From assembly GCA_036479435.1 (NCBI GenBank), contig JAZGFI010000018.1:1-59802 (forward strand): a DNA stretch of 59,802 nucleotides, written 5' to 3'. Position numbers and translations under genes: made by a program. This stretch comes from Planctomycetota bacterium (GTDB lineage: Bacteria > Planctomycetota > GCA-002687715 > DRQF01). Below the pieces are notes generated by a model, which did not search any database, had not been told where the DNA came from, and saw nothing but the letters and a program-made list of their open reading frames with translations. Below, piece after piece: positions 41,253-59,542 of the stretch; position 1 is the stretch's first letter, and every line of letters starts with the position of its first letter.

Positions 41253-43016
41253 ATGGCTGATTTGCCCGTTTGGGGTATCCACATCACCACCGCTTCTATT
41301 CGCGGCGTGAAGATCGTCCGCGATGGCGGTGATATGCGCATTGTCGCCCACGATCAGGTCGATTTTGCCGAAGATATTGACGACATCGAGAGCCTCGAGC
41401 GGCACGGGGCCCTCGCCCACGCCCTTTTTGTCTTCGCCAAACGGCATGACCTGTCGAAGAGCCGCGTGGTGATTAGCGTTGACGCCTCGACGGCCTTCAA
41501 TCGCTACGTCGAGACCCCGATGGTCGAAGGCGAAAGCATGATGCGCTTGTTGGAGTACGAGGCGCAGCAGCAGATTCCCTTCGATCTCGATGGTGTCCAC
41601 TGGGGCCACAAGGTTCTCAATTTAGATCACGACGCGAACATCGCGCACATCATGCTCTTCGCGATCAAGAAAGAGGTCGTGGACGAGCGTTTGCGTCGCA
41701 TGGCCAAAGTCCGGTTTCCCGTCGACCAAGTTCAGATCTCACCGATCGCGCTCTTTAACTACGCGGCTTATGAAGGCTTGGCAAAAGACGGCTACGCGCT
41801 CATTAGCGTCGATTATGACCGTTCTGACGTGGTGATCTCTCATCGCGGTCGCTTTTGGTTTAGGTCCCTGCCGACCGGGGTCTTCTCCTATGTCGAGGCG
41901 ATCCGCGAGAGCATTGAGCCTCGCCATCGCGCCGCGGTGCGCATCGGTCGCGGGGAAGTGAAACCTGAGGACCCGAAAGCCTTCAAAGAGGTGCGAGACG
42001 CCTACACGGAGCGTTTAGCCTCCGAACTCTCTCGCATGATCGAGTACTACCGGGGCACGCTCCGCGACGTCGATCTGAAGGGCATCGTGTTGCTACCCGC
42101 GAGTCGCCTCGTTCCTTCGATCGGAAGCTATTTGAAAGAAGCGACGGGGCTTGAGGTTTACGCGGTCAAGTCTTTCCGCAAACTGAAAATCGATCCGGGG
42201 ATTGTCACCCCGGAAATTGAGCGACACACCGCAAGTTTTGCTCACGCCGCTGGCCTCGCCTTGCAGGGTCACAACGAAGCCGAAGTTGACGTCAAACTTT
42301 ATGACCCCAGCATTGAACGCGATATCGGGGTGCGAAAGGTGTTTTACGCGCTCTCGATTTTCGGGGTTTTTGCCCTGGTCGGGTGGCTGTGGTGGCAGAG
42401 TTCCAAACGAGTGGAACAGCTCAATAGCGCTCAAAAGGCCCTCTTGGACCAAGTCGGCCAGGCGGACGCCCAGACGCAGAAGTTCGAGAAACACCGCCGC
42501 GAGCTGGACATCAGCGATGAGCTGGCTCCCTATCAAAGCGCTAGCCGCGGCCGCGAGGCCGCTTTGAAAGCCGTCGAAGATGTCTTGGCGGCTATTGAGG
42601 CTGAGGCCGCGCCGAAAGGGCCAGACGATCGCACTTATTTGCTGCGGATTGAGACCAAGCCGGCTGATTTTGCTGAGGGTCGCGCCTTGGGACGACGACG
42701 GGTTCAATTGCGGTTGGGACGACTCGATCGACCTGGTGTCGATAGCGCGGCCGCGATCATGAGCGGCGTGATCGCTCGCTTGAAGTCGAACGGCCGCGTC
42801 TCCGACGTCATCGAAAAGAACCGCTACCAGGCACCGAGCTTGATGGGCTTGCCGATGTCAGAATCTGTCGGCAAGACGAAAATCCTTCGTCGGCGCTTTA
42901 CGGTGATCGACTACCAGTTTGTGTATAAGGCGCCAGAGCCGGCCGTCAAGGCCCCCGAGTCTGCCGTTAAGACCGCGGAACCGGCTGGTTCGGTTGAGCG
43001 CGGAGCCGGATCATGA
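41253..43016 (+). CDS. pilM: PilM-like actin-fold protein fused to TM + PilN-like region
   Basis: WGIHIT, YEAQQQIPFDLD, LFAIKK, ISPIALFN, AAGLALQG, then a TM and coiled coil. Confidence 0.75.
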   Translation: MADLPVWGIHITTASIRGVKIVRDGGDMRIVAHDQVDFAEDIDDIESLERHGALAHALFVFAKRHDLSKSRVVISVDASTAFNRYVETPMVEGESMMRLLEYEAQQQIPFDLDGVHWGHKVLNLDHDANIAHIMLFAIKKEVVDERLRRMAKVRFPVDQVQISPIALFNYAAYEGLAKDGYALISVDYDRSDVVISHRGRFWFRSLPTGVFSYVEAIRESIEPRHRAAVRIGRGEVKPEDPKAFKEVRDAYTERLASELSRMIEYYRGTLRDVDLKGIVLLPASRLVPSIGSYLKEATGLEVYAVKSFRKLKIDPGIVTPEIERHTASFAHAAGLALQGHNEAEVDVKLYDPSIERDIGVRKVFYALSIFGVFALVGWLWWQSSKRVEQLNSAQKALLDQVGQADAQTQKFEKHRRELDISDELAPYQSASRGREAALKAVEDVLAAIEAEAAPKGPDDRTYLLRIETKPADFAEGRALGRRRVQLRLGRLDRPGVDSAAAIMSGVIARLKSNGRVSDVIEKNRYQAPSLMGLPMSESVGKTKILRRRFTVIDYQFVYKAPEPAVKAPESAVKTAEPAGSVERGAGS

Positions 43017-43873
43017 CGCGCTACCGCTTTTGGATCCTGTTTGGGGCCTGCGTGGTTGCGGCGGGGGCGGTTTGGTTTTTGTCAGTGCCTAAAAAGCTCG
43101 ATCAGATCGAGGCTCGTGCCTCGGATTTGCATTCTCTCGCGCAGCGCGCCGATGATCTCGCCCCCCGAGCTGTCGGCGCTAAGACCCTTGGGGCTCAGGA
43201 GTTCGCCCTCAACGCCGCCCGCAAGGACCTCGGTGATCTACAATCTGAGTTCCTCGATCGCGATGCGCAAAACCTCGACCTTTGGTTCCCCGAGCTCAAG
43301 ACTTCTTGGGCCCGGCGGCCCTCGGCGGTCGATTTTAAGCGCTATTATTTAGTCAGCACCGATGATTTGAGGCGGGTTTTGGTGACGGCGGCCGAGCAAC
43401 TGGGTGCCAAGAGTGCGGTGGCGGCGCTCATTGAGTATTCCTGGATGAAGGGCGATGAGCTGCCGCCCCCGGCCGATCTGCGCGATCTGCAGCGCGAGTT
43501 TTGGGTGCAAGATCGCCTGTTCCGCGCCGCGGCGCGATACGGTGCCTTGCCGGTGAAGCCCATGGAAGTTGGCGCAGCCGAAACGGCCGTCGGCCTCGGT
43601 AAAAGGTTGTTTGCCCGTCGGCCCTACCGGCTTTTCATGGAAGTGCCCACCGTCGAGTTGCGCCGGTTGCTCCACGCTTTTGATGGGCCCTTCAAGGACC
43701 CGAGTGCGGCGCGTATCGGGGGCACAGTCGGCATGCGAGTGCTCGTTAACCAGGTTGGGGTTAGCCGCTTGAAGCTCGACCGCGACGTCGCGGAGGGTTT
43801 GAGCCGTGGGACCCGCGTCCAAGTTACTTTCGATTTGACCGTCCTTGATTTCGAACTCCCGAAGGAGGGCTGA
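43013..43873 (+). CDS. PilO-like bitopic membrane protein
   Basis: N-terminal TM, coiled coil, LQREFWVQ, ferredoxin-like C-terminus; coupled to the pilM-like gene. Confidence 0.55.
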   Translation: MTRYRFWILFGACVVAAGAVWFLSVPKKLDQIEARASDLHSLAQRADDLAPRAVGAKTLGAQEFALNAARKDLGDLQSEFLDRDAQNLDLWFPELKTSWARRPSAVDFKRYYLVSTDDLRRVLVTAAEQLGAKSAVAALIEYSWMKGDELPPPADLRDLQREFWVQDRLFRAAARYGALPVKPMEVGAAETAVGLGKRLFARRPYRLFMEVPTVELRRLLHAFDGPFKDPSAARIGGTVGMRVLVNQVGVSRLKLDRDVAEGLSRGTRVQVTFDLTVLDFELPKEG

Positions 43874-43876: not shown

Positions 43877-44890
43877 GTGAAACTCCTCCTCGACAATCTC
43901 GATATCTTGTTGTTCGCGCTGGTTGTCGCCACGCTGGGCGCGGTCGTGGGGCTCGGCATCGGAAGTGGAGCGAAAGCCAGTGCCTCGGCGCTTGAGCGCG
44001 CCGAGACCTCCAGTGCCGCCTTGGACTCCGCGCTCGAAACCGACCGTTTTCAAAAAACTGAGCTGGCGACCGAGTTAGCCGGCTTGACCAACACGGCTCA
44101 GGGCATCCGCACTGGCTGGAGTGAGGGACCGCGCCCAAAAGATCTCGCTGCGGGGCTTTTTTACCACCCCGGTTCGCTGACGGATGCCAAGGATGGCCGC
44201 GAACTAGAGATTCGCTTCCAGGCACCTCGCGCCCTTGAGATTGAACCTTTGGTGGGCGGGATTCGGGTGACTTGGGAGTTGAACAACTTGAGCACGGTCG
44301 TGGCGAACGGATTCGTCCTCTACCGAAAAAGCGGCGACGAAAAGTCTTCCGCGCTCGTGAAACTCGGAGCCGAGGCCCGAGAGTATTTCGACCGCGCGGT
44401 TCAACCCGGTACGCTCTACAGCTACGAAGTGACCGCGGTATCGTCCGATCCGGTGTTGGCGCGCCTTCAACAAAGTGAGTCTCCGCGCTCACGGGCCGTA
44501 CACGCTCGCCCCAAACGGGACTACGAAGTCGCCTTGTTGGACTGGATCCCGGCCGAAAAACGTGCCCGCGTCATGATTCGCAAGTTCAGCGACGGCGTCT
44601 GGCACGAAAAACAGTTCGATGCCCGTGAGGACACGGACTTGGGGCAAAAAGATGTGGGCTCCGGTGTCGACTACCGCACCAACTGCCACATCCAAAAGAT
44701 CACCAGCGGCGTTGAGTTTGTCGAGCAGTCGCGTCTCGAGGTTTTATTCGACATCGCGGGGCGAGTCCTTTTCGATGAAGAGGGCAAGCTGCGGCGCCGC
44801 GAAACAACCTATATTCGAGAGCGACAAGTTGTGACTTTGGAGTATCGAAATGAGCTGGGGCAAAAAGAGAAGTTGATTCTCAAGCGCTAG
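43877..44890 (+). CDS. Membrane-anchored protein with fibronectin type III domain
   Basis: N-terminal TM; APRALE..IRVTW..GFVLYR..YFD..YSYEVTAV FN3 pattern. Confidence 0.7.
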   Translation: MKLLLDNLDILLFALVVATLGAVVGLGIGSGAKASASALERAETSSAALDSALETDRFQKTELATELAGLTNTAQGIRTGWSEGPRPKDLAAGLFYHPGSLTDAKDGRELEIRFQAPRALEIEPLVGGIRVTWELNNLSTVVANGFVLYRKSGDEKSSALVKLGAEAREYFDRAVQPGTLYSYEVTAVSSDPVLARLQQSESPRSRAVHARPKRDYEVALLDWIPAEKRARVMIRKFSDGVWHEKQFDAREDTDLGQKDVGSGVDYRTNCHIQKITSGVEFVEQSRLEVLFDIAGRVLFDEEGKLRRRETTYIRERQVVTLEYRNELGQKEKLILKR

Positions 44891-45201: not shown

Positions 45202-47808
45202 ATGATCCTTTCCAAGACGTCGTACCTGACGGGTGCCGTCCTGACTGGCCTCGCACTGTTCGTTACGGCTTGCGGTAGTTCGCAACAGCAGTACGACAGC
45301 GAGCCGACGACGATGAGTTCCAGTTCGACGAATTCGAGCATGTCCAGCATGTCGAATGCACATATATCGACGCCTCCAAACACCCAAGACGGAACGGCGC
45401 TGGGGATGGAGGCTGCTGACCAAGAGCGTCGCAAAGCCACCGTCCGCGCTCTCGTTGAAAAAGCGAACGCCGCGGCCAACGCGGGACGCCACGAAGAGGC
45501 GCGCGACTTCTACCGTCAAGCGACGAATTACGACCCCACCAACCTCGACGCGTCGGATGGCTACCTCCGGATGACTCGTTTGGTCAACGGGGGCACGTCG
45601 GTCTCGGGCGGCGCGATGCAGGAGATGACGGCCAAGGAACAGGCTCGCACCCAAAAGGCGATCTTCCTGCACCGTCAAGGTCTCGAAGCCCTTGGTCGCG
45701 GCGAGTATGACGACGCCGTCAGCAGTCTCGACCAGTCCTATCAGCTGCTCAAGTTTGGCCCCCGCGCCAACACGACGCTTACCGCCGATGCGGTCAAAAA
45801 CGCCCTCGACGCGGCCCGCGATCAGCGCGACCGTTTTGAGCGTGGTGAATCCGAAAGGCTTCAAACGGCCGCGGCCAAGGCCGAACGGATTGCCGCCGAC
45901 AAGGAGCGTTTGAGGCTCGACCGCAAGATCCGCGATCTCTACGAAAACCTCTTCGACCGCATCGAAGCCGAGCAGTACGCTCGCGCCGAGCACATCGCGG
46001 ACGCGATCATTAGGCTCGCGCCCCGCGATGAAGATGCGAAGAAGCTTCGCGCTCAGGCTCGCAAGGCCCGCTTGGCCCTGCAGAACCGCGAGAACGTCGC
46101 CAACACCATGGAGGAGACTCAAATCCTCCTCCAAGAAGCCAAGATCAGGATGATCCCGCAGGCGCAAGATATAATCTTCCCTGATGATTGGGCCCGCATT
46201 AAGGCTCGCCAGCCGCGCACGATCTCCGATTCCTCGGAACAGATCAGCGAGAGTGACCGCACAGTCGCCAACAAGCTCGCAGCCGCCGTGCTGCCGCGCG
46301 TCGATTGGAATGGCAAGACGCTCGACGAAGTCGTCGATGAAATCCGCACTCAGGCCGACGTCAACGTCTACGTGACGCCCAGTGCCAAGACCACGGCCGA
46401 AGACGCCGGTGAACTCTCGCTTGAGTTCACCCAGGTCTCCGCGGACTACGCATTGAAAGCGGCCCTCGAGCAGCTCGGCGTGGTCTACAAAGTCGAAAAC
46501 GGTTTGGTTCGCGTGCAGACGACCGAAGAGTCAGGCAAGTACAAAGTCGTCGAGTTCTACGACGTCAAAGACCTCACCAACCCGATTCAGTCCTTCCCGG
46601 GCGTGGCTTTGAACTTGAACCCCTCCGGCGTCGACCTCAGCGAAGAAGAGGAAGACGATGCCGAGCCCAACTCGGCGATCGAGATGGAACGCCTGATAGA
46701 ACTCATCAAGCGCGCCGTCGATCCGAACTGGGATGAAGACGGTGGCAACCGCCTCGACCCGAAGAACGGCACCCTCATCGTTCGCCAGACTCCGGAAAAA
46801 CAACGTCTCGTTCGCCGGCTCCTCGATGATCTGCGCCGCAACACCGGCATCCAGGTCGCGATCGAAGCGCGCTTCGTTCAAATCGAAAACAACTTCCTTC
46901 AAGACATCGGCGTTGACCTTCGCGGTCTCGGTGATGACAGCGGTGGCGTTGGCGTCCCAGGTGTTGGCACCAACAACCCCTTCGATGACTTCGGCATTCC
47001 GGGTGGTTCCGGCGTCGGCACGCCCGCCATTCCCGGTGGCATCGGCACCGGCACTGACTCGGGAGTGTTCTTTTCAGATCGCAACGGCGACACCAATGTC
47101 CGGGCTCGTACCGAAAACCTCTTCGACGAGGTGCTCGGCGATCCCAACACCTTGGACAACAGTGGCGGTCTTAGCTTCCAATTTGCCTATCTCGATGATG
47201 TGCAACTCGAAGCGATCTTGCGCGCCGTGCAAAAGTACGAGCGCATCAACTCGGTAACGGCGCCCCGCTTGTTGGTCTACAACACGCAGCGCGCCAACCT
47301 CACCGTCTTGAACGAAGTCAGCTACATCAAAGACTTCGACGTCGAAATCGCCCAGGCCTCGGTTATCGCCGACCCCATCGTCGACAAGATTCGCGAAGGT
47401 GTGGTTTTGGATGTGCGCCCGATCGTTTCCCACGATCGCCGCTTCATCACTTTGGAGTTGCGGCCCACGGTTGCGACTTTGGTGCGCCCGATTCGCCGCT
47501 TTACGACCAACCTCGCGGTTGGTTCGGCGGTCACGATTCAGCTCCCCGAACTCCGCAAGCAACAGGTCAACACCACGGTCGTGATGCCCGACGGCGGAAC
47601 TTTGTTGCTCGGTGGTTTGAAATTCGCTTCCGAGCAGTCGCTCGATTCGGGTGTCCCCTTTCTGAAGGACATCCCGATCCTCTCCTTCTTCTTCTCGCGC
47701 AAGGGTAAGTCGACCACCCAGCGTGACGTGATCATCCTTTTGAAGGCCAAGATCATCATCATGGAAGAGTTGGAGCCAGGCGCTCGCGATGGATCGTTGA
47801 TCCACTAA
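45202..47808 (+). CDS. Secretin 1 (type II/III secretin family lipoprotein with N-terminal TPRs)
   Basis: Lipobox VTAC; QVAIEARFV, APRLLVYNTQRA, GVVLDVRP, TTVVMPDGGTLLLGG, GVPFLKDIPIL. Confidence 0.9.
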   Translation: MILSKTSYLTGAVLTGLALFVTACGSSQQQYDSEPTTMSSSSTNSSMSSMSNAHISTPPNTQDGTALGMEAADQERRKATVRALVEKANAAANAGRHEEARDFYRQATNYDPTNLDASDGYLRMTRLVNGGTSVSGGAMQEMTAKEQARTQKAIFLHRQGLEALGRGEYDDAVSSLDQSYQLLKFGPRANTTLTADAVKNALDAARDQRDRFERGESERLQTAAAKAERIAADKERLRLDRKIRDLYENLFDRIEAEQYARAEHIADAIIRLAPRDEDAKKLRAQARKARLALQNRENVANTMEETQILLQEAKIRMIPQAQDIIFPDDWARIKARQPRTISDSSEQISESDRTVANKLAAAVLPRVDWNGKTLDEVVDEIRTQADVNVYVTPSAKTTAEDAGELSLEFTQVSADYALKAALEQLGVVYKVENGLVRVQTTEESGKYKVVEFYDVKDLTNPIQSFPGVALNLNPSGVDLSEEEEDDAEPNSAIEMERLIELIKRAVDPNWDEDGGNRLDPKNGTLIVRQTPEKQRLVRRLLDDLRRNTGIQVAIEARFVQIENNFLQDIGVDLRGLGDDSGGVGVPGVGTNNPFDDFGIPGGSGVGTPAIPGGIGTGTDSGVFFSDRNGDTNVRARTENLFDEVLGDPNTLDNSGGLSFQFAYLDDVQLEAILRAVQKYERINSVTAPRLLVYNTQRANLTVLNEVSYIKDFDVEIAQASVIADPIVDKIREGVVLDVRPIVSHDRRFITLELRPTVATLVRPIRRFTTNLAVGSAVTIQLPELRKQQVNTTVVMPDGGTLLLGGLKFASEQSLDSGVPFLKDIPILSFFFSRKGKSTTQRDVIILLKAKIIIMEELEPGARDGSLIH

Positions 47809-47820
47809 ACGCCTCATCTC

Positions 47821-47859
47821 AAAAAGGCCCCTTTCGCACGCGCGAAAGGGGCCTTTTTT
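47821..47859. terminator. Strong (bidirectional-type) intrinsic terminator
   Basis: AAAAAGGCCCCTTTCGC-ACGC-GCGAAAGGGGCCTTTTTT. Confidence 0.9.
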
Positions 47860-48079
47860 GAGTCTTCCACCTGTTGCTCAGGCCTATCCGCCGGCAGCCG
47901 GCGAGGTCTGAGATGGAAAAAGGCTCAATTTTCCAATTTTGTGTGAAACGGACTTTGCCTGAACCTTCAAGCTTTGGGATCGGTTTGCTATGTTCCCTCC
48001 CAAGCCCGTCCGTTCCGGTTTTCCCGCCGGTCAAGGATTCGTTCCCGACCAACACAGTTTGTACTCTGAGGATCCGATC

Positions 48080-51028
48080 ATGGTGTACGTCAGGACCGCC
48101 GGTCTGCGTTCGTTCGCGCTCTTGGCTCTTTTTCTAGCCGCGACGTTCCAGGCCCCCTGCGCGAAAGCTCAATACGAGTACGAGTGGGGCAAAGCGCTGC
48201 TGGAAGATCTCCGCTTCGAGGACATGGCCGAGACCGTCTTCGCGGATTTAGCCTCGCGTTCGTCCAATGACGAAAAGAATCAGGGCCGGCTTGGGCTTGC
48301 CTTGTTGAAGCGAAGCGCCGCCCAACGCACCGACGACATCGGCTTGCGCGCCAAGCTCAACGACGAAGCCATCAAGATCCTCGAGTCCGTGGCGAAGAGC
48401 ATCGATGAGTCCTCGACGGAATACTGGGACACTCAGTTCTCATTAGCGGACACGCTGCAAGAAGTCGCGAACGAAGGGATCGACCTGGTCAGCAAGGGGC
48501 TCGTACCTGCGGACAAAGTTGCCGACCTGATCAAAACCAACCTCAATCGTCTCGACAAAGCTGAGTACATCTACACCAACGCCAAAGACAAATTCGCGGA
48601 CGCTAAAGAGGGAAGTGACGAGAAGACTATTCAGGGCCGTGCCACCTTGAACCACTTTGTTCTGCAACTACGCCGTGCCTGGTTGACGGGCACGGACCCC
48701 AAAAAGCGCGCCGACCCCGATCGCCTCAACCGCCTCAATGATCTGCGCGAAGAGCTAGAGGAATTCGCCGGAGTAAACGATGGCCAGGTCTACGGCATCT
48801 ACGGCTACTACTGGCTGGCGCAAACCATGGCCGAGTTGTCGCGATCGAGCAGCGAGACTAAGCCGGAAGAGATCGCCGATTACTACTTTTACGTCATCGA
48901 TAGCATCGTCTACACGCCCGAACAGTTCGCGGCGAATGGTCGCAGTTTCATACCGGCTGAGGCGGGGCTGTTGTCGCTGGCACAAAGCACCTACTGGAAA
49001 CTGCTCGAATTCGAAAATGGCCACGGTTGGACCGGGCTTGTCATTACCCACGGCGAGAAGATGCGGGCTGATTTCAAAGCTTGTAAATATGACTTTGCCA
49101 TTGGTGGCGACCTCGCCCTGATCGAACTTGCCAACGCTTACCAAAACGAAGGTCGCTCCGGCGAAGCGTTAGAGATCGCCGCGACGATTTCCAAAAAGGG
49201 TGGCTATCAGGGGCAACAAGCCGACAAGCTGATGTCACTCATCATCAACACCGCGGTCAGCAAGGCCGGTTTTGACCCCCGACTGCTGATGGCTGGCGCC
49301 AACGGTGCCCGCATCGCTGCCGGTAAGAACCCGGCCAAGTACCATGAAGCCATCGAGCTATACCGCGGCGTTCTGCAGAATCTGCACAAGGTTGAAGATG
49401 TTGTCGAGCGCAACGACCTCGGTCGGCAAGCGGGCTATCGCATCGGTCAAGCCCTCGATCGGCTGGGACGCGATTTTGAATCGGCGATCGCCTTTGAAAG
49501 CACCTACCGTCGTTTCAACAACACGCAGTTCCGGGTCGACCCCAAGCTCAACAACAAGGTCTTTCGCTATTGGCGCTCGATGCTGAGTCAGTTTCAGCGG
49601 GCAGCGGGCGGTCAGGCTTTTGCCAAGGATTTGCGCGAAAAGGCCGATCGCTATTTGGTCAACAACCCGCCCAAGGGCAAGGGCACGGGCGACTCGCTTC
49701 AGCTCGCGTGGAACCAAGCGGAGAAGTTGCGTCGCCAAAAGAGCTGGGAAGAGGCCAAGGGGGCCTACGCCAAGATCGCGAGCAAGCCCTCCGAGTACCA
49801 AGAGCGCGCCACAGTGAAAGCCGCGGTCATCAGCGTTCAGATTCTTGGGGCCAACCGGGCGACGGCGACGGCGGACCAGTGGGTTGCCGCCGCGAAGGCT
49901 TTCGAGGACTACAAAAAGTACACGGATTCCAACGTCGAGTCTGACCCCACTCGCTTGTCAGCTCGCAAGGGTGCCCTCATTGAGGCAGACTTGCAGATTT
50001 CGGGGGCGCTGTCGCGCGCGGCTGATCTCGAAAAGGATGTGACCAAAAAGGAAGCGCTTTATCGCCGCGTGCTGGCGGTGACCGACGGCTTCGGCAAACG
50101 TACCCGCGATGAGAACGCGGGGCAGTACGTGCGTTTCAATCGCTTCAAAGCGCTCGTCGCGGTTGGCGAGGCCGAAGCCGCAGAGGCGATTTTTGACGAG
50201 ATGGTGAAAACCGATCCCAAGCATCGCAACGTGCCCTCGGCGGCGCTTCAGATCTATCAACTCCTGCGCGATAGCGCCGCGACCATGACGACCCTCAGTG
50301 ATGAGGGCCGCAAAAAACAACGTGCGACCATGCAGCGCGCCGGCGAGGCCTATCGCATCTGGCTGTTTGCCAAGCAACCGCGCAAGCCGGGCAACTGGAC
50401 GGTGGGCTACAAGATCTTCTACGAGGCCGAGCAGTGGGATCCAGCCTACGAGATCCTAAGGGCGGCGATGAAGAAGTTCAGCGGACAAAGAGGCAAAGAG
50501 AAGGCGATGGGGATCTTTCGCCGTCGCTTGGCCCGTACCCTGCTCGAAAAAGCTAAGTTCTCGTTTCGCCAGGGTCGCAAGGAAGAGAGCGAAGAACTCT
50601 TCAAAGAAGCTTCGGTTATCTACGTAGAACTGGTCAGCGCTCCAAAAAAGCCGCGTTCGGTACTCGCGGAAGCGGCGGAGATCTTTGGCGGTTTTGTCAC
50701 CGGGCCCGACCAGCGTGGACGCTACGCGCACTTCCCAGGAACTTCCGAGTTCAAAGACGCCTATGACATTTGGAAAAAGCTCGCCCAATGGTCGAATAAG
50801 GCGGGCAGCACGCCGGCGAAAGAGGCCGCTAACGCGCTCCTTCGGCCGAAGGCCGAGTTTTATAAGCTCTTGATGGCGTTGAAGATCGCCCAAGCGAATA
50901 AAGACACGAGGTCGCTGAAGAAGCTGAAGAAGTTCGTCGAATCGACGTTCCAAAAAGGTGGCCCTGACAATCCTCCCGGCGGTGCCAAGTGGAGCAAGCA
51001 GTGGCAGTGGCTGAGGTCGCAACTGTGA
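48080..51028 (+). CDS. Large exported alpha-solenoid/TPR protein
   Basis: Signal peptide (..APCAKA), repeated helical hairpins; GAGG SD; upstream TTCAAG-17-TATGTT. Confidence 0.8.
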   Translation: MVYVRTAGLRSFALLALFLAATFQAPCAKAQYEYEWGKALLEDLRFEDMAETVFADLASRSSNDEKNQGRLGLALLKRSAAQRTDDIGLRAKLNDEAIKILESVAKSIDESSTEYWDTQFSLADTLQEVANEGIDLVSKGLVPADKVADLIKTNLNRLDKAEYIYTNAKDKFADAKEGSDEKTIQGRATLNHFVLQLRRAWLTGTDPKKRADPDRLNRLNDLREELEEFAGVNDGQVYGIYGYYWLAQTMAELSRSSSETKPEEIADYYFYVIDSIVYTPEQFAANGRSFIPAEAGLLSLAQSTYWKLLEFENGHGWTGLVITHGEKMRADFKACKYDFAIGGDLALIELANAYQNEGRSGEALEIAATISKKGGYQGQQADKLMSLIINTAVSKAGFDPRLLMAGANGARIAAGKNPAKYHEAIELYRGVLQNLHKVEDVVERNDLGRQAGYRIGQALDRLGRDFESAIAFESTYRRFNNTQFRVDPKLNNKVFRYWRSMLSQFQRAAGGQAFAKDLREKADRYLVNNPPKGKGTGDSLQLAWNQAEKLRRQKSWEEAKGAYAKIASKPSEYQERATVKAAVISVQILGANRATATADQWVAAAKAFEDYKKYTDSNVESDPTRLSARKGALIEADLQISGALSRAADLEKDVTKKEALYRRVLAVTDGFGKRTRDENAGQYVRFNRFKALVAVGEAEAAEAIFDEMVKTDPKHRNVPSAALQIYQLLRDSAATMTTLSDEGRKKQRATMQRAGEAYRIWLFAKQPRKPGNWTVGYKIFYEAEQWDPAYEILRAAMKKFSGQRGKEKAMGIFRRRLARTLLEKAKFSFRQGRKEESEELFKEASVIYVELVSAPKKPRSVLAEAAEIFGGFVTGPDQRGRYAHFPGTSEFKDAYDIWKKLAQWSNKAGSTPAKEAANALLRPKAEFYKLLMALKIAQANKDTRSLKKLKKFVESTFQKGGPDNPPGGAKWSKQWQWLRSQL

Positions 51029-51090
51029 TGCGCGCCGCCATGAACCCGACGATCAAAGCAGCGATTTTCTCACTCCGGAAGACCCCGACG

Positions 51091-52396: not shown

Positions 52397-52538
52397 AAAG
52401 ATGTCAGGGACTTGTTGTGAGTTCCTTATCTTGCAGGGTAAATACGGAAGGCCTCGACATCGAGGCGAACTGGGAACTTCGGAGAAGCTCGATACGAGTG
52501 TCGAGAGCTCCGTGAACTGTTGGAGACAGAAGCTGACC

Positions 52539-53216
52539 ATGCGCTACAAGATTACCGCTGTTCTGGCCGTCCTTCCGGCCTACTTGATCTGCAGCACGAA
52601 CCTCTACGCCATTGGCGCCCAGAAGCTCTTTACTGGTGGGGGCTGGATTGGTGCCGTCCTTTGGATGCTCTCGGTCGTCGGTATTGCTCTCATCATTGAG
52701 AACTTCATCAACGTCCGTCGCGAAAAGCTCGCGCCGCCGGAAGTGTTGGACGAGATCGAAGAGCTCTTCAACGAAGAGCAGTACCAGCAAGCGCTGGAAA
52801 TCTGCGAGTCCGATCCGAATTACCTCACCAACGTGCTCTCGGCCGCCTTGCCGAAGGTTGAGTACGGCTATGACTCCATGGAGCAGGCCGCACACGACAT
52901 CGCCGAAGAAGAGGCCATCAAGTTGCACGCCAAGGTGAGTTGGCTTTCACTCCTCAGTGCCATCGCGCCCATGATTGGGCTGCTCGGTACGGTTTGGGGA
53001 ATGATCGGGTCCTTCGAAGTTATCGCGACCTCGTCGGCGCCGGAGCCAAGCGAGTTTGCCGATGAAATTTCGCTAGCCCTGATCACGACCGTTCTCGGTC
53101 TGCTGGTCGCCATCCCCATGATGGTCGGGTTCTTCTACTTCCGTAACAAGGTGACCCGGATCGTCCTCGAAATCGGGGCCATGACGGAAGACCTCCTCGA
53201 CCGCTTCCGCAACTAG
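52539..53216 (+). CDS. MotA/TolQ/ExbB proton channel
   Basis: APMIGLLGTVWGMI..F and ISLALITT.LGL.VAIP. Confidence 0.93.
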   Translation: MRYKITAVLAVLPAYLICSTNLYAIGAQKLFTGGGWIGAVLWMLSVVGIALIIENFINVRREKLAPPEVLDEIEELFNEEQYQQALEICESDPNYLTNVLSAALPKVEYGYDSMEQAAHDIAEEEAIKLHAKVSWLSLLSAIAPMIGLLGTVWGMIGSFEVIATSSAPEPSEFADEISLALITTVLGLLVAIPMMVGFFYFRNKVTRIVLEIGAMTEDLLDRFRN

Positions 53217-53390: not shown

Positions 53391-53942
53391 ATGGCGAAGA
53401 AAAAGATCCGCGATCGCGGTGAAGCGCCCGACGAAGAAATCGAGATGAACATGACGCCGATGATCGACATCGTGTTTCAGATGATTCTCTTCTTCATCAT
53501 CATCACGGACTACACGCAGAAAGACATTGCGCTCTTGACCCTGCCTTGGTCGACGGCTGGACAAGACGATGAAGGTGATGATCCCACCCGGATCATCATC
53601 AACATCACCGCGCCGAGTCCCACTCCTGGGGAGCTGGCCACGGCTAAAGGCAAGAAGTTTTGGAGCAAGGAGCGCTTGCGCACCGCGGACCGAATCTTGG
53701 TGAACGGCAAAAATAAGACCTTCAAAGAACTTTCGAACTACCTGTTGCAGAACGGCGTTAAGAACGTGAAGTATCGCGACAAGGAAAAACCGCACTTGTC
53801 GTCGAGATCGCTCTTGATCCGTTGCGATGGCTTGCAGGCCTTCGACTACGTAAAGGGCGTACTACAGGTTTGTTCGCTACCGCAGGTGGCGATCTACAAG
53901 GTCGAAATTGCGACGGCGGAAGAACCAGGGGGAGACGAATAA
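53391..53942 (+). CDS. ExbD/TolR family protein 1
   Basis: NMTPMIDIVFQMILFF with the conserved TM Asp; LLIRCD. Confidence 0.9.
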   Translation: MAKKKIRDRGEAPDEEIEMNMTPMIDIVFQMILFFIIITDYTQKDIALLTLPWSTAGQDDEGDDPTRIIINITAPSPTPGELATAKGKKFWSKERLRTADRILVNGKNKTFKELSNYLLQNGVKNVKYRDKEKPHLSSRSLLIRCDGLQAFDYVKGVLQVCSLPQVAIYKVEIATAEEPGGDE

Positions 53943-53945: not shown

Positions 53946-54485
53946 ATGGCCAAGAAGAGGAAATCAGCCGTCGAAGAAGAAATGGAGCTCAACATGACGC
54001 CGATGATCGACGTCACTTTTCAGCTGCTCATCTTCTTTATCGTGACCCTGAAGTTTAAGACGCTTGAGAAGAAGTTGAATTCGTATTTGCCGACGGACTT
54101 GGGTCTGAACGCATCGAACGAAATCGTCGAAGACGTCTTTATCACCGTGAAGCTCCGTCAGCCTCTCAAGGCCGTAGCAGGTCGCTCTTGGCGTTCGCCG
54201 AAGAAGACTAAGTTTCTTTTTGAAAGCGAAGAGATCACGGGCTCGTCGAACAACGCTCTGCGCGAGATCAAAAAGCGCTTGAAGCTTTTTCGGGCCCAAC
54301 AGCCGGAAGCCAAGGGCAAGATCGACGCGGCCTTCGGTGTGCCTCACATGCACGTCGTAGGAATCTTGGATGTGTTTCACGCGGTCGGCTACGAAACGAT
54401 CAGTTTCACCGGCCTCGCGAAAAACTCGAGCATCGTCAAGAACGAGGTGTGGTTCAACCGGATCCAGCAAGAACTGCGTCCCTGA
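53946..54485 (+). CDS. ExbD/TolR family protein 2
   Basis: NMTPMIDVTFQLLIFF; KIDA...VP..HVV.ILD. Confidence 0.9.
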   Translation: MAKKRKSAVEEEMELNMTPMIDVTFQLLIFFIVTLKFKTLEKKLNSYLPTDLGLNASNEIVEDVFITVKLRQPLKAVAGRSWRSPKKTKFLFESEEITGSSNNALREIKKRLKLFRAQQPEAKGKIDAAFGVPHMHVVGILDVFHAVGYETISFTGLAKNSSIVKNEVWFNRIQQELRP

Positions 54486-54560: not shown

Positions 54561-54569
54561 CATAAACCA

Positions 54570-54663: not shown

Positions 54664-56640
54664 ATGACCACGTTCTCTCGCCCGCGCAATTGGCTCTTGG
54701 CTCTCACCCTTGTCGTCGCGTGCCTCGCCGCTTGGTTAATTTACCGAGGCAAAAGCGATACTGGTGGCGCGCGCGTCCAACACATCCTGATCGTGACCCT
54801 CGACACCACGCGCTGGGATCGCATGGGGGCTTACGGGTACCGGCCCGGTGGCTACAGCCCGACTCCAGCTTTTGATTCTCTGGGGGACGACGGCCGCATC
54901 TACGAGCGCGCGTTTGCCCCCGCGCCCCTAACGCTTCCCAGTCATGCTTCTTTGATGACGGGGCTTGAGCCAGCCCAGCACGGTGTGCGCGAAAACGACG
55001 GCTTCGCCCTGTCAGTTGCAGCTGATCGGAGTTTTCAAACGCTCGCAGAAGGCCTACGGAACCGGGGTTACGCCACGGCAGCTTTTGTCAGTGCGCAGCC
55101 CTTGGATCGACGTTTTGGCTTGGCTGCCGGGTTTGACACCTACGACGACCTTTCAGATTCTGCTTCGCGGGGTGGGGCAAGCAACTTTGTTGAGCGCAGC
55201 GCCGAGGCCACGACCGATCGAGCCCTCGCCTGGTTGAAGGAGCATTCTGCGGACGCGCCATCTTTTATGTGGGTGCACTACTTCGATCCTCACCACCCTC
55301 ACCGCCGGCACACGGGAGTTTCCGAAACTTGGGAGGCTCGCGGCGCGTCTCCTTACGAAGGTGAGATCGCGTACATGGATCTGCATCTGCAGCGCTTGCT
55401 GGAGGCCTACAAGGCGCGTGGGCAGTGGCAGAACACGCTCGTCATCGTGTTGGCTGATCACGGTGAAAGCTTGGGGCAACACGGCGAGCCCTCACACGGC
55501 TACTTGACCTACGACTCGACCATGCGCATTCCCTTCGCCGTCAAGATGCCTGCGACCAAGGAAGGCAAGGCAAGCTTGCCAAGGGGTTCAGCATCGGTGT
55601 TGGATGTCTTGCCGACGGTGGCGGCGATGGTGGGGTGGGACCCCCCTCATGGCCAGCACTTGCGGGGGCGCGATCTTCGCAAGGTCTTTACAGAGTCGCA
55701 AAGCCACTTTGGCGAGTCGATGTACCCCTTTCGTCAGTTTAATTGGTCGGCGCCCCGCGCCTTATGGCTCGCCGACGAGAAGTTGATCGTCGCGGCGGGT
55801 GAGGCGGAGCTCTACGACATCAAGAAAGATCCTCAAGAAACCAAGGACCTCGCTCCGCTCCGGCCAGAGCGCGTTCGGTTCTTGAGGGAGACGATGCGTC
55901 GCTACCGGGCGAGGCTGACTTCGCTCCATCGCAAGGATTTGCGGATGGATCCTCCTGTCGCTCTCTCCGCTTCCGCATATTTGCAAGCAGCGGGTAAATC
56001 CGTTGCCGCCGAACCGGATGACTTAGTCAACGTCACTTTGCCTCACCCGCGGGGAAAAATGAGGGTCGTGGCCGCGCTGGATGGGCTGCGCCACGCTATT
56101 GAGCGCCTCGCAACCGAAGAGAGCGCTATCGCGGTGGTCGATCTGCAAAGTCGCGTCGCGCTGTTGGAAGCATCCGTGCAGGCTGGCAATCCCGCGGCAC
56201 TTTTTTGGATCGCGAGAGCAAGGCTTCGCTTGGCAGGGCTCGCTCGCGGAAACTTAGTTTTGCCCGACTCCGCCCGGCGCGAGTTGCTGTCGGAAGCGCT
56301 CAATCAGCTGGAGACTTTGCGTGCGGTTCGCCCCGAGGACCCCCGCGTCTACAATCAAATGCACCTCGTCCGACTCGCGAGTCTTGGGCTTGGCGGCGAA
56401 AAGGCCGCCTTTGAAGCCATTTTATCTCTCTTTGAAGAACAACAGCGGCGCGGTTTGCTGGATGCTCTGGCCTGGGCCTTGCGCGGCAAAGCCAACGAAT
56501 GGAAGGGCGACTTCGGGGCGGCGATCGACGACCTGAAACGCGCCATATCGCTCGACGGCAGCCGGAAGGCTTGGCACAGAGACCTCAAGCTCTTGGAGGC
56601 CAAGCTGCGCGACCGCAAGAGGCGCCAGTCCGGCGGCTGA
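54664..56640 (+). CDS. Sulfatase-like (alkaline phosphatase superfamily) protein with C-terminal TPR
   Basis: VTLDTTR.D, PLTLPSHASLMTG, WVHYFDPH, YEGEI, ADHGE, ELYD..DPQE. Confidence 0.9.
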   Translation: MTTFSRPRNWLLALTLVVACLAAWLIYRGKSDTGGARVQHILIVTLDTTRWDRMGAYGYRPGGYSPTPAFDSLGDDGRIYERAFAPAPLTLPSHASLMTGLEPAQHGVRENDGFALSVAADRSFQTLAEGLRNRGYATAAFVSAQPLDRRFGLAAGFDTYDDLSDSASRGGASNFVERSAEATTDRALAWLKEHSADAPSFMWVHYFDPHHPHRRHTGVSETWEARGASPYEGEIAYMDLHLQRLLEAYKARGQWQNTLVIVLADHGESLGQHGEPSHGYLTYDSTMRIPFAVKMPATKEGKASLPRGSASVLDVLPTVAAMVGWDPPHGQHLRGRDLRKVFTESQSHFGESMYPFRQFNWSAPRALWLADEKLIVAAGEAELYDIKKDPQETKDLAPLRPERVRFLRETMRRYRARLTSLHRKDLRMDPPVALSASAYLQAAGKSVAAEPDDLVNVTLPHPRGKMRVVAALDGLRHAIERLATEESAIAVVDLQSRVALLEASVQAGNPAALFWIARARLRLAGLARGNLVLPDSARRELLSEALNQLETLRAVRPEDPRVYNQMHLVRLASLGLGGEKAAFEAILSLFEEQQRRGLLDALAWALRGKANEWKGDFGAAIDDLKRAISLDGSRKAWHRDLKLLEAKLRDRKRRQSGG

Positions 56641-56809: not shown

Positions 56810-56839
56810 TTGACACTCGCTTTTAGCGTCGTGTAGAAT
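56810..56839 (+). promoter_or_regulatory. Putative sigma70 promoter of secretin 2
   Basis: TTGACA-18-TAGAAT. Confidence 0.65.
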
Positions 56840-56941
56840 CCCGCGCCAACGAGCACCAAAGAAGGTCCTTACCTAAAAGCGGCAACGCTCTTTAGGTGAC
56901 GTGAATCGGGGATTGCCCCACAAATGGGTCAGAGGTCGAAC

Positions 56942-59542
56942 ATGGTTCTGAATGTGGTCCTGAATACTACTAGCGGCTCATTGCCGCGTATCGCGTTTGC
57001 GATGATGCTCGTCATGAGTCTCGTCTTCAGCGCAGCCTGCTCTACTCAGCAGGACGACGCTGATGGCAACTCACCGGGCACGATGCGCTCGGTCGATACG
57101 TCGGGCAGCATGATGACGGAAACGCCGATGGCGTCGATGCAAGACAACTTGACGCCCGAGCAGCAAAAGCAGCGCGCCAAGATCCAAGTCTTGCTTCAAC
57201 AGGCGAACCGGCAGGTGACCAAGGGTGAGCTCCGAGATGCGAAGGCGACCTACGCTGAAGTGCTCGTGCTTGACTCCGGCAACCTGATGGTCAAAAACCG
57301 CATCGCAGAGATCGACCATGCGCTCGGTCTCGGCGGTGGCGATGCCCTGATGCAATCGGCAGCGCAGGTCAAACTGATGCGCCAGCGCCAGCAAGCCGAA
57401 GTCAACGACCGCTTCTCCAAGGCCACCCGGCTTTACTCGCTCGGCGAGTACAAAGACGCGGAAACCGAGTTGAAAGTCGCTGACACGCTGATGCGTTACG
57501 ACCCCTACAACACGAACTTCGGCGACAAAAAGCGCGACGTGGCGGATCTACTTGATCAGTCACACCGCCGCATCGAAGAAACCGAATCGGCCCGCGAAGC
57601 GCAGGCGATTGAAGACTCGTACAACGAGCTTCGCAGAGAAGAGAACTTGGACCAAGAGCGCAGGATCGCCAAGGTCCGCAATCTCATGGAGCGCGGCTTC
57701 CAGGCCTTCGAAGACCAAGACTTTGATCGCGCCGAGGACTTCGCTAAGCAGGTGCTTTACGAAGCGCCTACTTTCGCCAAGGCCAAGGATCTCCGCGACT
57801 TCTCGCGTCAGGCGCGTCACGCTGCTTGGCGTAAAACCTGGTACAAGCGTCGCCGCGAACAGCTTCAGGATTGGAAGCGCCAGATGCGCGAGACGCAGAT
57901 CCCCTGGCACCACATCCTTCAGTTTCCAGAGCGTGATGTTTGGGATCAGATTACGAAGCTCCGCAAGAACAAGGGCCGCAGTGCCGACGTTCGTGACGAC
58001 AGCGAGGCCGTCACGGCCTTGAAAAACCGTCTCGCCAACGAGCGGGTCACCTTTGACTTCTCGGACATGACAGTCGGTGAAGCCATCGACAACATCCGCG
58101 ACACCCAAAACGTCAACATCGTCTTGTCGAAGGCCGCACGCGACGAAAAGGGTGATGAGCCCGCCGAACTCACCGTCCGCGACCACAACTTCGGTGACTC
58201 GTTGAGCACGATGTTGGAGGACAAAGAACTCGCCTACGTGTTTAAGTACGACATGATCTTTGTCGTCGGCAAGACGGAGTCGACCGGTGCGGTCTACCCC
58301 GAGGTTTATGAAGTGCGCGACCTCACGGTTCAGCTTCCGAATTTCGTGGCTCCCGACTTGACCCTTCGCCCCGGCCCCGCCGGTGAAGAGGGAGCGGCGG
58401 CGGTTTTCGGTACCGAAGGCGATTCGGTTCGCGACACCGAGCCCGAGCTTCTGCTCGAACTCGTCCGCGACAACGTCGGCGTTGGTACCTGGGAAATCGA
58501 AGACCGCGACCTTCAGCTTGGCTCCGGTCAGCTCGTCGCGGTAACGACCCCCGATGTTCACCGTGAGATCGAGGCCTTTCTCGATGACCTGCGTCAGTTC
58601 ACCAAGATCGCCGTCCACGTTGAAACGCGCTTCATCTCGATTCGCGAAGGTCGATTGAATGAAATCGGCCTCGACATTCGCGGCACGGGTGGTTCGGCGC
58701 CGGGCAACATCGCTTTGCTCGACGACGTCACCAACGGCCAAGACGACAACGCCTCCGTGGGTAACGACAACAGTGGCCCCGGTCTTCCAGCCGGTGCCAG
58801 CCAGAGCCCCGGCGCAGGCGCTTTCTTCAACAACAATGGAGAAACTGACTTCCGCGCCCGGACCGAGAACATCTTTAACCGCGCGTTGGGTGGCTTTTTG
58901 TCGAGCACGGGTGGAGCCTCCGTTGGCTTTGCCTTCTTGGACGACCTCGAGTTGAACACGGTCTTCACCGCGGTTGAGAAGTCGGCCTTCGCCAACGTTC
59001 TTCGTGCGCCGAGCTTGACCATCTACAACAACCAACGCGCCAACCTCACTCTGGTGAATCAAGTCACCTACGTGAAGGATTACGACGTTGAAGTCGCGCA
59101 GACGGCTTTCATTGCTGACCCCCTGGTCGACATCATTCAGGACGGTCTTGTCCTGGACGTGCGCCCGACCGTCAGTCATGACCGCCGCTACGTGACCCTT
59201 GAGCTCCGCCCGACAGTGGCGGTTCTCGGTCGCCCGATTCAGACCTTCGTGACGCCGCTCGCTGGCCTGACCACCTCGGTCACCATCGAGCTGCCGGAAC
59301 TCCAGTACCGCTCGGCTTCGACCACGGTCAAGGTTCCGGATCGCGGCCACGTCGTGATCGGCGGTCTGAAGAACATCACCACGGTTGACCGTCGCTCCGA
59401 AACGCCCATTCTTTCGCAGATCCCGATTCTGTCCTTCTTCTTCTCGAAGAAGGGTCGCTCGGATGAGCTCTCTGACCTGCTCATCATCCTGAGCGTCGAA
59501 ATCGTCGACCTCGAGGAAGCCGAGAACAACCTCAGCCGTTAG
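56942..59542 (+). CDS. Secretin 2 (paralogue of secretin 1; lipoprotein with TPRs)
   Basis: Lipobox SAAC; VHVETRFI, APSLTIYNNQRA, GLVLDVRP, TTVKVPD, TPILSQIPIL. Confidence 0.9.
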   Translation: MVLNVVLNTTSGSLPRIAFAMMLVMSLVFSAACSTQQDDADGNSPGTMRSVDTSGSMMTETPMASMQDNLTPEQQKQRAKIQVLLQQANRQVTKGELRDAKATYAEVLVLDSGNLMVKNRIAEIDHALGLGGGDALMQSAAQVKLMRQRQQAEVNDRFSKATRLYSLGEYKDAETELKVADTLMRYDPYNTNFGDKKRDVADLLDQSHRRIEETESAREAQAIEDSYNELRREENLDQERRIAKVRNLMERGFQAFEDQDFDRAEDFAKQVLYEAPTFAKAKDLRDFSRQARHAAWRKTWYKRRREQLQDWKRQMRETQIPWHHILQFPERDVWDQITKLRKNKGRSADVRDDSEAVTALKNRLANERVTFDFSDMTVGEAIDNIRDTQNVNIVLSKAARDEKGDEPAELTVRDHNFGDSLSTMLEDKELAYVFKYDMIFVVGKTESTGAVYPEVYEVRDLTVQLPNFVAPDLTLRPGPAGEEGAAAVFGTEGDSVRDTEPELLLELVRDNVGVGTWEIEDRDLQLGSGQLVAVTTPDVHREIEAFLDDLRQFTKIAVHVETRFISIREGRLNEIGLDIRGTGGSAPGNIALLDDVTNGQDDNASVGNDNSGPGLPAGASQSPGAGAFFNNNGETDFRARTENIFNRALGGFLSSTGGASVGFAFLDDLELNTVFTAVEKSAFANVLRAPSLTIYNNQRANLTLVNQVTYVKDYDVEVAQTAFIADPLVDIIQDGLVLDVRPTVSHDRRYVTLELRPTVAVLGRPIQTFVTPLAGLTTSVTIELPELQYRSASTTVKVPDRGHVVIGGLKNITTVDRRSETPILSQIPILSFFFSKKGRSDELSDLLIILSVEIVDLEEAENNLSR

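Follow-up and report, generated by a model that had tools for sequence, protein, structure and literature searches.

The stretch of DNA analysed here (the window, 59,802 nucleotides; positions 1 to 59,802 of contig JAZGFI010000018.1, assembly GCA_036479435.1) comes from a planctomycete (GTDB lineage Planctomycetota; GCA-002687715; DRQF01) and carries, at positions 41253 to 59542, a cluster of genes for two secretins, a PilM-containing scaffold and an ExbB/ExbD-type motor. The window is the entire contig, here called C18, of a genome of 5.47 Mb in 299 contigs that is 92% complete, and it ends 260 bp past the last of these genes. A check of the open reading frames (ORFs) confirmed eleven co-oriented ORFs in this region, all on the + strand, as had been proposed in an earlier prediction made from the sequence alone (hereafter the original prediction). 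The eleven genes are best explained as the opening half of a larger, conserved gene cluster for an envelope machine and not as a stand-alone operon. Domains were called by Pfam and NCBIfam profile searches against curated cut-offs. TM, TPR and FN3 stand for transmembrane, tetratricopeptide repeat and fibronectin type III.

41253..43016, + strand: g1, PilM-like actin-fold domain, one TM segment and a periplasmic domain of about 200 residues, Amuc_1101-like (PF11104, NF045709)
43013..43873, + strand: g2, bitopic protein with a predicted Amuc_1100/PilO-like fold (structure model)
43877..44890, + strand: g3, bitopic protein with a coiled coil, an FN3 domain and a second beta-sandwich, at the gene-order position of PilP/Amuc_1099 (structure model)
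45202..47808, + strand: g4, secretin 1, probable lipoprotein with N-terminal TPR (PF00263, TPR_2)
47990..51028, + strand: g5, exported TPR-like solenoid of about 980 residues, likely start near 48080 (protein-atlas look-alikes)
50989..52182, + strand: g6, exported TPR protein of about 360 residues, YbgF/CpoB-like, likely start near 51091 (TPR_19, E 2.7e-12)
52401..53216, + strand: g7, stator subunit of the MotA/TolQ/ExbB family, likely start near 52539 (PF01618, E 9.3e-27)
53391..53942, + strand: g8, ExbD/TolR paralogue 1 (PF02472, E 1.2e-13)
53946..54485, + strand: g9, ExbD/TolR paralogue 2 (PF02472, E 4.1e-15)
54664..56640, + strand: g10, membrane-anchored or lipoprotein enzyme of the alkaline phosphatase superfamily with a C-terminal TPR (PF00884, PF01663)
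56924..59542, + strand: g11, secretin 2, a paralogue of secretin 1 (PF00263, E 9.3e-26)

Scaffold, secretin and motor genes

The products of g1, g2 and g3 are bitopic, as judged by eye. In g1, a cytoplasmic PilM part (PilM_2, PF11104, residues 8–339, E 1.4e-21, 77.2 bits against a cut-off of 27) is followed by a TM segment (residues 358–381) and about 200 periplasmic residues. The PilM/N-like fusion of the original prediction is thus supported for the PilM domain, the TM segment and the periplasmic domain, but no PilN family matched the periplasmic part (Pfam, E ≤ 5). The protein is homologous to the Amuc_1101 family (NF045709, E 7.1e-35), yet with 120.9 bits it lies far under the equivalog level, for which the cut-off is 650; for comparison, a Verrucomicrobiae genome (G168) scores 857 bits. 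It also stays below the cut-off of the PilM model TIGR01175 (84.3 against 133 bits). Neither g2 nor g3 matched any family in Pfam (to E ≤ 5) or NCBIfam, and PilO and PilP families were likewise absent from g2, g3 and the periplasmic part of g1 at this Pfam threshold. When the structure model of g2 (predicted local distance difference test score, pLDDT, 72) was compared with 48,161 PDB chains, the best match was Amuc_1100 (6lad_A, Z 11.5, root-mean-square deviation (rmsd) 4.0 Å, 164 residues aligned), followed by the PilO chains 2rjz_B (Z 8.7) and 5uvr_A (Z 8.0), in agreement with the PilO-like protein proposed before. In the model of g3 (pLDDT 83.6), a TM segment is accompanied by a coiled coil and by two beta-sandwich domains, one of which is FN3; the FN3 domain, which had also been foreseen, matched with Z 12.9 (rmsd 1.8 Å, 92 residues aligned), and Foldseek found a tandem FN3 protein at E 6e-7. 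No PilP chain was present among the best 50 matches of the g3 model.

Both secretins carry the Secretin domain, that of g4 at E 1.8e-28, and they share 35% identity. The claim of two TPR-secretins holds fully for g4, in which TPR_2 scored above its cut-off (31.6 bits), whereas the TPR score of g11 (17.5 bits) remained below. Inspection by eye pointed to a V-T-A-C lipobox in g4 and a probable lipoprotein signal in g11. Against the Amuc_1098 family (NF042912, cut-off 750), g4 reached 111.6 bits (E 3e-32) and g11 75.5 bits. The scores were also below the cut-offs of the PilQ model TIGR02515 (95.2 bits for g4 and 56.4 for g11; cut-off 284) and of the GspD model TIGR02517 (86.8 and 80.3 bits for the two secretins; cut-off 351). 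MshL was the best-scoring NCBIfam model for both, yet its curated cut-off was far from reached. The N-terminal halves of g4 and g11 contain no STN or AMIN family (Pfam, E ≤ 5).

Between the secretins lies the motor module. Its stator subunit, g7, has TolQ as best NCBIfam match, with 74 bits against a cut-off of 221. The two ExbD/TolR paralogues retain their TM aspartate, Asp26 of g8 in 32 of 32 and Asp22 of g9 in 30 of 30 aligned sequences, and PF01618 and PF02472 were both above cut-off; one ExbB and two ExbD with intact TM aspartate had indeed been predicted. The TolR model (cut-off 127) gave 21.6 and 28.9 bits for g8 and g9, and the TIGR exbB and ExbD equivalog models were below their cut-offs as well. 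The two exported TPR proteins of the original prediction are partly confirmed: g5 and g6 both begin, by eye, with a cleavable signal peptide at an internal Met, and g6 has a TPR_19 match, but all Pfam TPR matches of g5 were under cut-off and its assignment is based on protein-atlas look-alikes, which are TPR clusters mostly from Planctomycetota. The YbgF model TIGR02795 scored 42.8 bits for g6, below its cut-off of 90.1. The true starts of g5, g6 and g7 are likely the internal Met codons near 48080, 51091 and 52539, since the signal-peptide-like sequences begin there and relatives align only from there. A complex prediction with alignments for the periplasmic parts of g8 and g9 together with mature g6 gave 0.00 against a mark of 0.32, which, as control runs were not included, counts neither for nor against an interaction.

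The gene between the motor and the second secretin, g10, had been taken for a sulfatase with a TPR. The Pfam Sulfatase fold domain is present (PF00884, E 1.5e-38; PF01663, E 3.3e-16), with a weak TPR and, by eye, an N-terminal anchor, but the nucleophile motif of sulfatases is replaced. T90-L-P-S-H94 aligns with S-T-P-S-R of arylsulfatase 7snj, placing T90 and H94 opposite Ser and Arg (HMMER), and T-x-P-x-H instead of C/S-x-P-x-R was found in all 25 aligned orthologues. Threonine cannot be converted to formylglycine. Because Thr90 takes the nucleophile position, the alignment identifies g10 as an alkaline-phosphatase-superfamily enzyme with a threonine nucleophile position and not as a formylglycine sulfatase. 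We take the Thr-nucleophile type to include phosphodiesterases and phosphotransferases, and the first motif of g10 presumably is of the NPP-like kind. Genes for TonB or TolA often follow exbD or tolR, and we considered g10 as their substitute; this was rejected, as 27 of the 40 phylum loci described below lack g10. Being present in 13 of these loci, it is not a core part of the cluster.

We conclude that g1–g4 (module A) are the planctomycete counterpart of the Amuc_1101/1100/1099/1098 "pilus-like" cluster of Akkermansia, because g1 matches the Amuc_1101 family (E 7e-35), g4 matches the Amuc_1098 family (E 3e-32) and Amuc_1100 is the top structural match of g2. Both clusters comprise, in the same order, a PilM-domain fusion, an Amuc_1100-fold bitopic protein, a second bitopic protein and a TPR-type secretin, although here the NCBIfam scores fall far short of the equivalog level (121 against 650 and 112 against 750 bits). 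Upstream of g1 there is no counterpart of the pilin-like gene Amuc_1102, and two verrucomicrobial genes of that position had no tblastn match at E ≤ 1 in the genome, a weak result given the divergence of these sequences. The verrucomicrobial proteins at the Amuc_1102, 1100 and 1099 positions had no significant BLAST match in the genome or among the eleven proteins. The Akkermansia cluster belongs to the mucin utilisation locus MUL2; MUL1 and MUL2 were reportedly the subject of a primary study by Davey et al. in Nat Microbiol in 2023, and MUL1 is presumably the locus with TPR and ExbB/ExbD genes.

Two Verrucomicrobiae genomes, both metagenome-assembled (one from the Akkermansiaceae, one assigned to Verrucomicrobiae) and found by means of an Akkermansia 16S primer, contain, in this order, the PilM fusion, two bitopic genes and a secretin (L157, L158), and on other contigs ExbB-ExbD-ExbD followed by a TPR gene of 1,040–1,100 residues that matches the g6 profile. 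The scaffold and motor modules are unlinked in those two genomes, while here they are fused and joined by a second secretin; moreover, the TPR gene stands upstream of ExbB here and downstream there. The cluster is thus not wholly undescribed, as the original prediction had it, since g1–g4 correspond to Amuc_1098–1101; a paper describing the combination of secretins with ExbB/ExbD was not found in full-text searches, although subscription papers and supplements may hold more. According to the available portions of recent reports, the MUL genes of Akkermansia are needed for mucin import and encode pili and a periplasmic complex, with import into internal compartments (PMC12418764; PMC13174399; bioRxiv 10.1101/2024.03.27.586211).

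The cluster also resembles better-known systems in part. With PilMNOPQ and mshIJKL of the mannose-sensitive haemagglutinin (MSHA) pilus it shares a PilM actin-fold domain, a PilO-fold protein and a secretin in the same order, and a fusion of PilM domain and bitopic partner like that of g1 is also known from MshI and GspL. It differs from PilMNOPQ in having an FN3 bitopic protein at the PilP position, no AMIN family in either secretin, and no PilB, PilC or PilT; instead, an ExbB/ExbD stator with two TPR proteins is inserted, followed by a second secretin. With the TonB-ExbB-ExbD and Tol-Pal systems it has in common an ExbB/TolQ subunit, ExbD/TolR subunits with the essential TM aspartate and a CpoB/YbgF-like TPR neighbour, and like them it implies delivery of the proton motive force (pmf) to the outer membrane. 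Unlike them, it has two to five ExbD paralogues and secretins as outer-membrane neighbours, and neither the cluster nor the 40 phylum loci include TonB, TolA, TolB, Pal or a TonB-dependent receptor.

Conservation in the family, order and phylum

Relatives of g5 were found in all eight other genomes of the family and in 18 of the 61 genomes of the relatives sample. As far as the contigs reach, 14 of the 17 loci around them are colinear with the window, and these come from three families of the order and one other family; the remaining three (L042, L043, L044) are isolated matches only. In one relative of the same family (G004; L036, 15491–18703), g10 and secretin 2 are set apart by an extra ExbD and roughly 3 kb of other sequence. 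At the level of the phylum, an ExbB orthologue (E ≤ 1e-40) was detected in 111 of 151 genomes, and we analysed the 20 kb around it at 40 loci from 38 genomes with profile hidden Markov models (HMMs) built from the relatives. This synteny survey, which the original prediction had called for, revealed at least one co-oriented secretin beside the motor in 32 of the 40 loci. Secretins flank the motor on both sides in 22 loci, in the order secretin-(large TPR)-TPR-ExbB-ExbD (2 to 5 copies)-(g10)-secretin. Ten loci have a secretin on one side only, of which at least two break off at a contig edge (L062, L067) and one has a problem in ORF calling (L066). The upstream and downstream secretins fall into separate orthologue groups in most loci. 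A g6-like gene precedes ExbB in 38 of the 40 loci; at L066 and L067 the g6 match lay in over-long ORFs that were dropped. Profiles for PilB/GspE, PilT, PilC/GspF and TonB matched nothing in the 40 loci.

Across the 151 genomes, 90 have both this motor and this secretin type, 21 the motor only, 13 the secretin only and 27 neither, counts that rest on arbitrary thresholds and on genomes related to one another. At least three of the 13 genomes in the "secretin only" class (G009, G010, G081) do have a motor adjacent when profile HMMs are used. Together, the synteny and co-occurrence make the co-conservation of secretin and motor across the phylum a solid result.

The original prediction had pointed to a terminator-like hairpin near 47821, between the two blocks, and had considered that the blocks might not be co-conserved. 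Four features bear on transcription:

41168..41197, + strand: sigma-70-like promoter match, 10/12, upstream of g1 (consensus scan)
47818..47862, + strand: GC-rich hairpin with T-run between secretin 1 and g5 (direct folding)
56810..56839, + strand: sigma-70-like promoter match, 11/12, upstream of secretin 2 (consensus scan)
59557..59606, + strand: terminator-like hairpin with T-run after secretin 2, just before the contig end (-31.8 kcal/mol)

Direct folding confirmed the hairpin at 47818–47862 (-33.8 kcal/mol, z -8.4, with none of 200 shuffles folding as well), though the consensus terminator scan lists nothing at 47821, and in all of 12 relatives the gap between g4 and g5 likewise folds into stable hairpins (-24.7 to -40 kcal/mol). 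The gene order of the pilM-secretin block and the TPR/motor block is co-conserved despite this hairpin. Hairpins with a T-run are found after g9 and g11 as well. On its upstream side, g1 is separated by 81 bp from a radical-SAM/UPF0004 gene.

In relatives, the series of genes continues beyond secretin 2. The order there is a HAD hydrolase, an AsnB-type amidotransferase, a PMT_2-like membrane protein with TPRs, an FHA-GAF-sigma-54 activator, a double-FHA protein, a second PilM-like fusion, a small gene, a TPR protein of about 1,000 residues and several prepilin-like genes. Continuous contigs of two genomes carry this series without the AsnB-type gene (G003) or without the activator (G017); two others are colinear up to the large TPR gene (G004) and up to the first prepilin-like gene (G013), where the fetched stretches end, and a further two (G002, G022) are partial. 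In the genome studied here, contig C144 opens with the same series, and by synteny the cluster would continue from C18 into C144. At about 11466–27300 of C144 (L101, L159) lie a PilM-like fusion of 566 residues, a 291-residue gene, a 1,039-residue TPR protein and four prepilin-like genes; these account for four of the 14 N_methyl matches of the genome, one of them in a protein with a Laminin_G_3/ConA-like (lectin) domain. C144 also encodes a protein of 1,311 residues that matched no family, and it has no T2SSE or T2SSF match and no ATPase, PilC or secretin of its own.

The prediction of a machine without pilin therefore reflects the contig end, as the continuation on C144 holds four prepilin-like genes. 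Its wider statement that the window lacks prepilin, ATPase, PilC, TonB and receptor is correct for C18, where whole-genome family searches gave no T2SSE, T2SSF, TonB_C, TonB-dependent receptor or N_methyl match, but this absence carries little weight, since the window is no more than the contig, which breaks off 260 bp past g11.

The downstream genes are relevant to a reading in which the cluster exports or assembles a surface polymer or fibre, such as a holdfast, an exopolysaccharide or a glycosylated fibre, with the secretins as export pores and the motor aiding secretion or anchoring. Secretins are classically export pores, and the downstream HAD hydrolase, AsnB-type amidotransferase, PMT_2-like glycosyltransferase with TPRs, FHA proteins and sigma-54 activator (in relatives and on C144) would fit such a role, as would g10 as a Thr-type phosphoryl-transfer enzyme, a kind that decorates envelope polymers. 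We nevertheless consider export unlikely. The downstream extension is lineage-limited: outside this order, only three of the 20 phylum genomes searched, all of one family, have it at 8–28 kb downstream of ExbB. The domain scan of the window revealed no polysaccharide polymerase, flippase, Wza or ABC (ATP-binding cassette) exporter, and the closest characterised relatives, the MUL genes of Akkermansia, are tied to import in the reports cited above, as far as these were available.

Other pili, secretion systems and motors of the genome

We searched the rest of the genome for components that could explain the cluster as an ordinary machine, as the original prediction had suggested. Complete sets of type IVa pilus and type II secretion genes do exist: C113 has a canonical pilM...pilQ set with pilT, pilD, pilC and a pilin, separate from the cluster, and C27 has gspD-E-F-G, a type II secretion system (T2SS) with its own secretin, in contrast to C18 with neither GspE nor GspF. 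A third locus, on C271, consists of pilB-pilT-pilB-pilC with no secretin or PilM gene. Orphan GspE/PilB-like genes occur on C147 (about 84.7–86.5 kb, beside an HDOD protein) and C198 (about 18.8–20.5 kb, beside a response regulator), and neither has a secretin, PilC or PilM gene in its vicinity; some 2 kb from the C198 gene there is a weak N_methyl match of 24.7 bits. Two more secretins are encoded on C103 and C264 and two more PilM-like fusions on C144 and C224. Outside C18, the genome totals five full-length PilB/GspE-type matches, three PilC/GspF genes and 14 N_methyl matches. The canonical machines do not explain g1–g4 away, because they have their own secretins and PilM. The presence of unlinked PilB and PilC genes, on the other hand, means that the description of the cluster as ATPase-free is not supported. 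On C224 (about 27.5–31.3 kb, L102), the PilM-like fusion, of 619 residues, follows a gene for an extracytoplasmic function sigma factor and a gene of 193 residues whose product may be an anti-sigma factor.

The genome has only three genes of the MotA/ExbB family, namely g7, the flagellar MotA on C63 and an ExbB/TolQ gene on C236. The latter forms a canonical ExbB/TolQ-ExbD/TolR pair beside a TolB-like (PD40) gene, and the sole TonB_C match and the sole TonB-dependent receptor match of the genome lie in adjacent genes on C56 (3438–6552). The pair on C236 could serve this TonB and receptor, and the stator of the cluster is therefore an additional, dedicated one. A role of the cluster motor as the only energiser of TonB in the cell was rejected in view of the C236 pair. 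The TonB open frame on C56 contains one in-frame TAA in the whole-genome search output.

One ExbB/TolQ-type subunit with two of ExbD/TolR type is also the stator composition of the AglRQS-Glt gliding machinery of Myxococcus, in which one TolQ-like and two TolR-like subunits work with TPR proteins in an envelope-spanning complex. A surface-motility motor of this kind would account for the likeness of g7–g9 and their TPR neighbours to AglR, AglQ and AglS. In the cluster, however, secretins and a PilM/PilO-type scaffold take the place of the Glt proteins, and to our knowledge secretins are not part of Agl-Glt. No Glt-type component was among the Pfam matches in the window, where no search was aimed at Glt, and flagellar genes (MotAB and FliI) are present on C63. 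A motility function is, in our view, very improbable.

A candidate machine for polymer passage

In the reading we prefer, to which we assign a probability of roughly 50%, modules A and B constitute a single secretin machine coupled to a proton motor, which most likely serves the uptake of polymers. Module A would provide an inner-membrane platform, made of the PilM fusion, the Amuc_1100/PilO-fold protein and the FN3 bitopic protein, and the outer-membrane lipoprotein secretin. Module B (g5–g9) would be a dedicated pmf stator of one ExbB/TolQ-type subunit, two distinct ExbD/TolR subunits with the proton-carrying aspartate and two exported TPR proteins, and the cluster would be closed by g10, as an accessory phosphoesterase-like enzyme of the Thr type that ends in a TPR, and by the paralogous secretin g11. 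The two modules would form one trans-envelope machine, in which the work of the stator may pass through the periplasm to the secretin channels or to a fibre within them. The TPR proteins are the likely force link because no TonB or TolA is encoded in the cluster, and we infer, as did the original prediction, that the TPR solenoids may replace TonB. The machine would carry out the energy-dependent passage of large polymers, probably the import of glycans into the periplasm, with capture perhaps helped by the prepilin-like and lectin-domain proteins encoded downstream. The pmf-energised secretin apparatus that had been proposed is thus retained with regard to co-conserved blocks and an additional motor, and revised with regard to its supposed independence of ATPases and pilins. 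The analysis establishes the gene content, motifs, folds, synteny and co-occurrence; the physical coupling of motor and secretins, the path of the force, the inward direction of transport and any contribution of a PilB-type ATPase from elsewhere are inferred.

Several points weigh against this reading. Eight of the 40 phylum loci have the TPR-ExbB-ExbD-ExbD core alone, with no secretin nearby, and in family f7 the motor type is present but this secretin type occurs in none of six genomes, including complete ones. In one genome of the same order (G012; L185, L091), the scaffold, both secretins, g5 and g10 form a block with no motor in it, and TPR-TPR-ExbB-ExbD-ExbD lies on another contig; because of this separation, the linkage of motor and secretin is not obligatory. 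Hairpins after g4, g9 and g11, together with promoter-like sites, suggest up to four transcription units, and the cluster is probably several units and not one operon; the promoter matches themselves, two found in the region against 4.0 expected from shuffles, are not above chance. A cytoplasmic PilM domain normally docks a motor of the PilB/PilC type, and the unlinked PilB and PilC genes could power module A in trans. Secretins, finally, are mostly known as conduits for export or pili.

The same observations bear on the view that the cluster comprises two ordinary neighbours, g1–g4, perhaps with g11, being a subcomplex like that of a type IV pilus, MSHA or T2SS, and g5–g9 a Tol/ExbBD-like motor with a CpoB-like TPR protein. 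In many bacteria, pilMNOPQ is encoded apart from the ATPase, platform and pilins, and this genome offers PilB, PilT and PilC genes unlinked to any secretin or PilM (C271), the orphan GspE-like genes on C147 and C198 and 14 N_methyl genes. Both secretins score best with MshL, g1 resembles a PilM-PilN fusion, g6 matches the YbgF/CpoB model and g7 scores best with TolQ; the hairpin between the blocks, the solitary motor cores and the unlinked modules of G012 are consistent with this view too. One difficulty is that many planctomycete families share the gene order and that, at 22 of 40 loci, paralogous secretins enclose the motor. Another is that canonical machines are encoded elsewhere in the genome, namely a pilM...pilQ set on C113, a T2SS and its secretin on C27 and a TolQ/TolR-like pair by a TolB-like gene on C236. 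In addition, the scores with the TolQ, TolR, YbgF, PilQ, MshL and GspD models are all far below curated cut-offs, and TolA, TolB, Pal and TonB are absent from the cluster and from the 40 loci. We regard two ordinary neighbours as a doubtful explanation and prefer the single coupled machine.

Planctomycetes are known to take up whole polysaccharides, and a single machine of this type is of interest in that context. Boedeker et al. (2017; PMC5394234), in the part available, describe dextran binding to fibres that emanate from crateriform structures bridging the outer and cytoplasmic membranes, the uptake system being uncharacterised, and a 2025 review, likewise available in part, states that the players of planctomycete polymer uptake are still unknown (PMC12673574). 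We tentatively extend our reading, in a form that we hold to be rather unlikely, to the proposal that the cluster and the downstream prepilin-like module are the planctomycete macromolecule-uptake apparatus. The crateriform complex would then be a secretin-based, type-IV-filament-like importer in which gating or fibre movement is driven by ExbB/ExbD via TPR proteins, not via TonB and possibly not by a PilB-type ATPase, and Verrucomicrobia would have inherited a split form as the MUL loci of Akkermansia.

The arrangement is of wider microbiological relevance. In standard accounts, secretin machines are driven by ATP, and ExbB/ExbD motors work together with TonB or TolA. A motor nested between two secretins, with no TonB or ATPase nearby, points to a new route by which inner-membrane energy may reach an outer-membrane channel. 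The cluster thereby becomes a testable candidate for moving large polymers across the planctomycete outer membrane and provides candidate genes for the uptake of whole polysaccharides into the planctomycete periplasm, and for how the related MUL genes of Akkermansia import mucin.

Window positions 46500–56400 are present, at a share of 0.97–1.00, in public sequencing runs from three studies, labelled "invertebrate metagenome", "metagenome" and with a coded organism, two of which may be where this DNA came from; no RNA run is listed among the public runs that contain this part. Elsewhere in the window, a gene for a ComEC-type competence channel (20964–23105, - strand; PF03772, E 1.5e-35) lies beside a HAMP histidine kinase gene, 18 kb upstream of the cluster, and is possibly linked to the secretins. 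A dcw cluster at 4180–15902 consists of mraW, an ftsI-like penicillin-binding protein gene, murE, murF, ftsW, a LysM protein gene, murC and murB. An Opp/Dpp-type peptide ABC transporter operon occupies 28861–36011 and apparently includes four consecutive ATPase genes (32320–36011), double the usual number.

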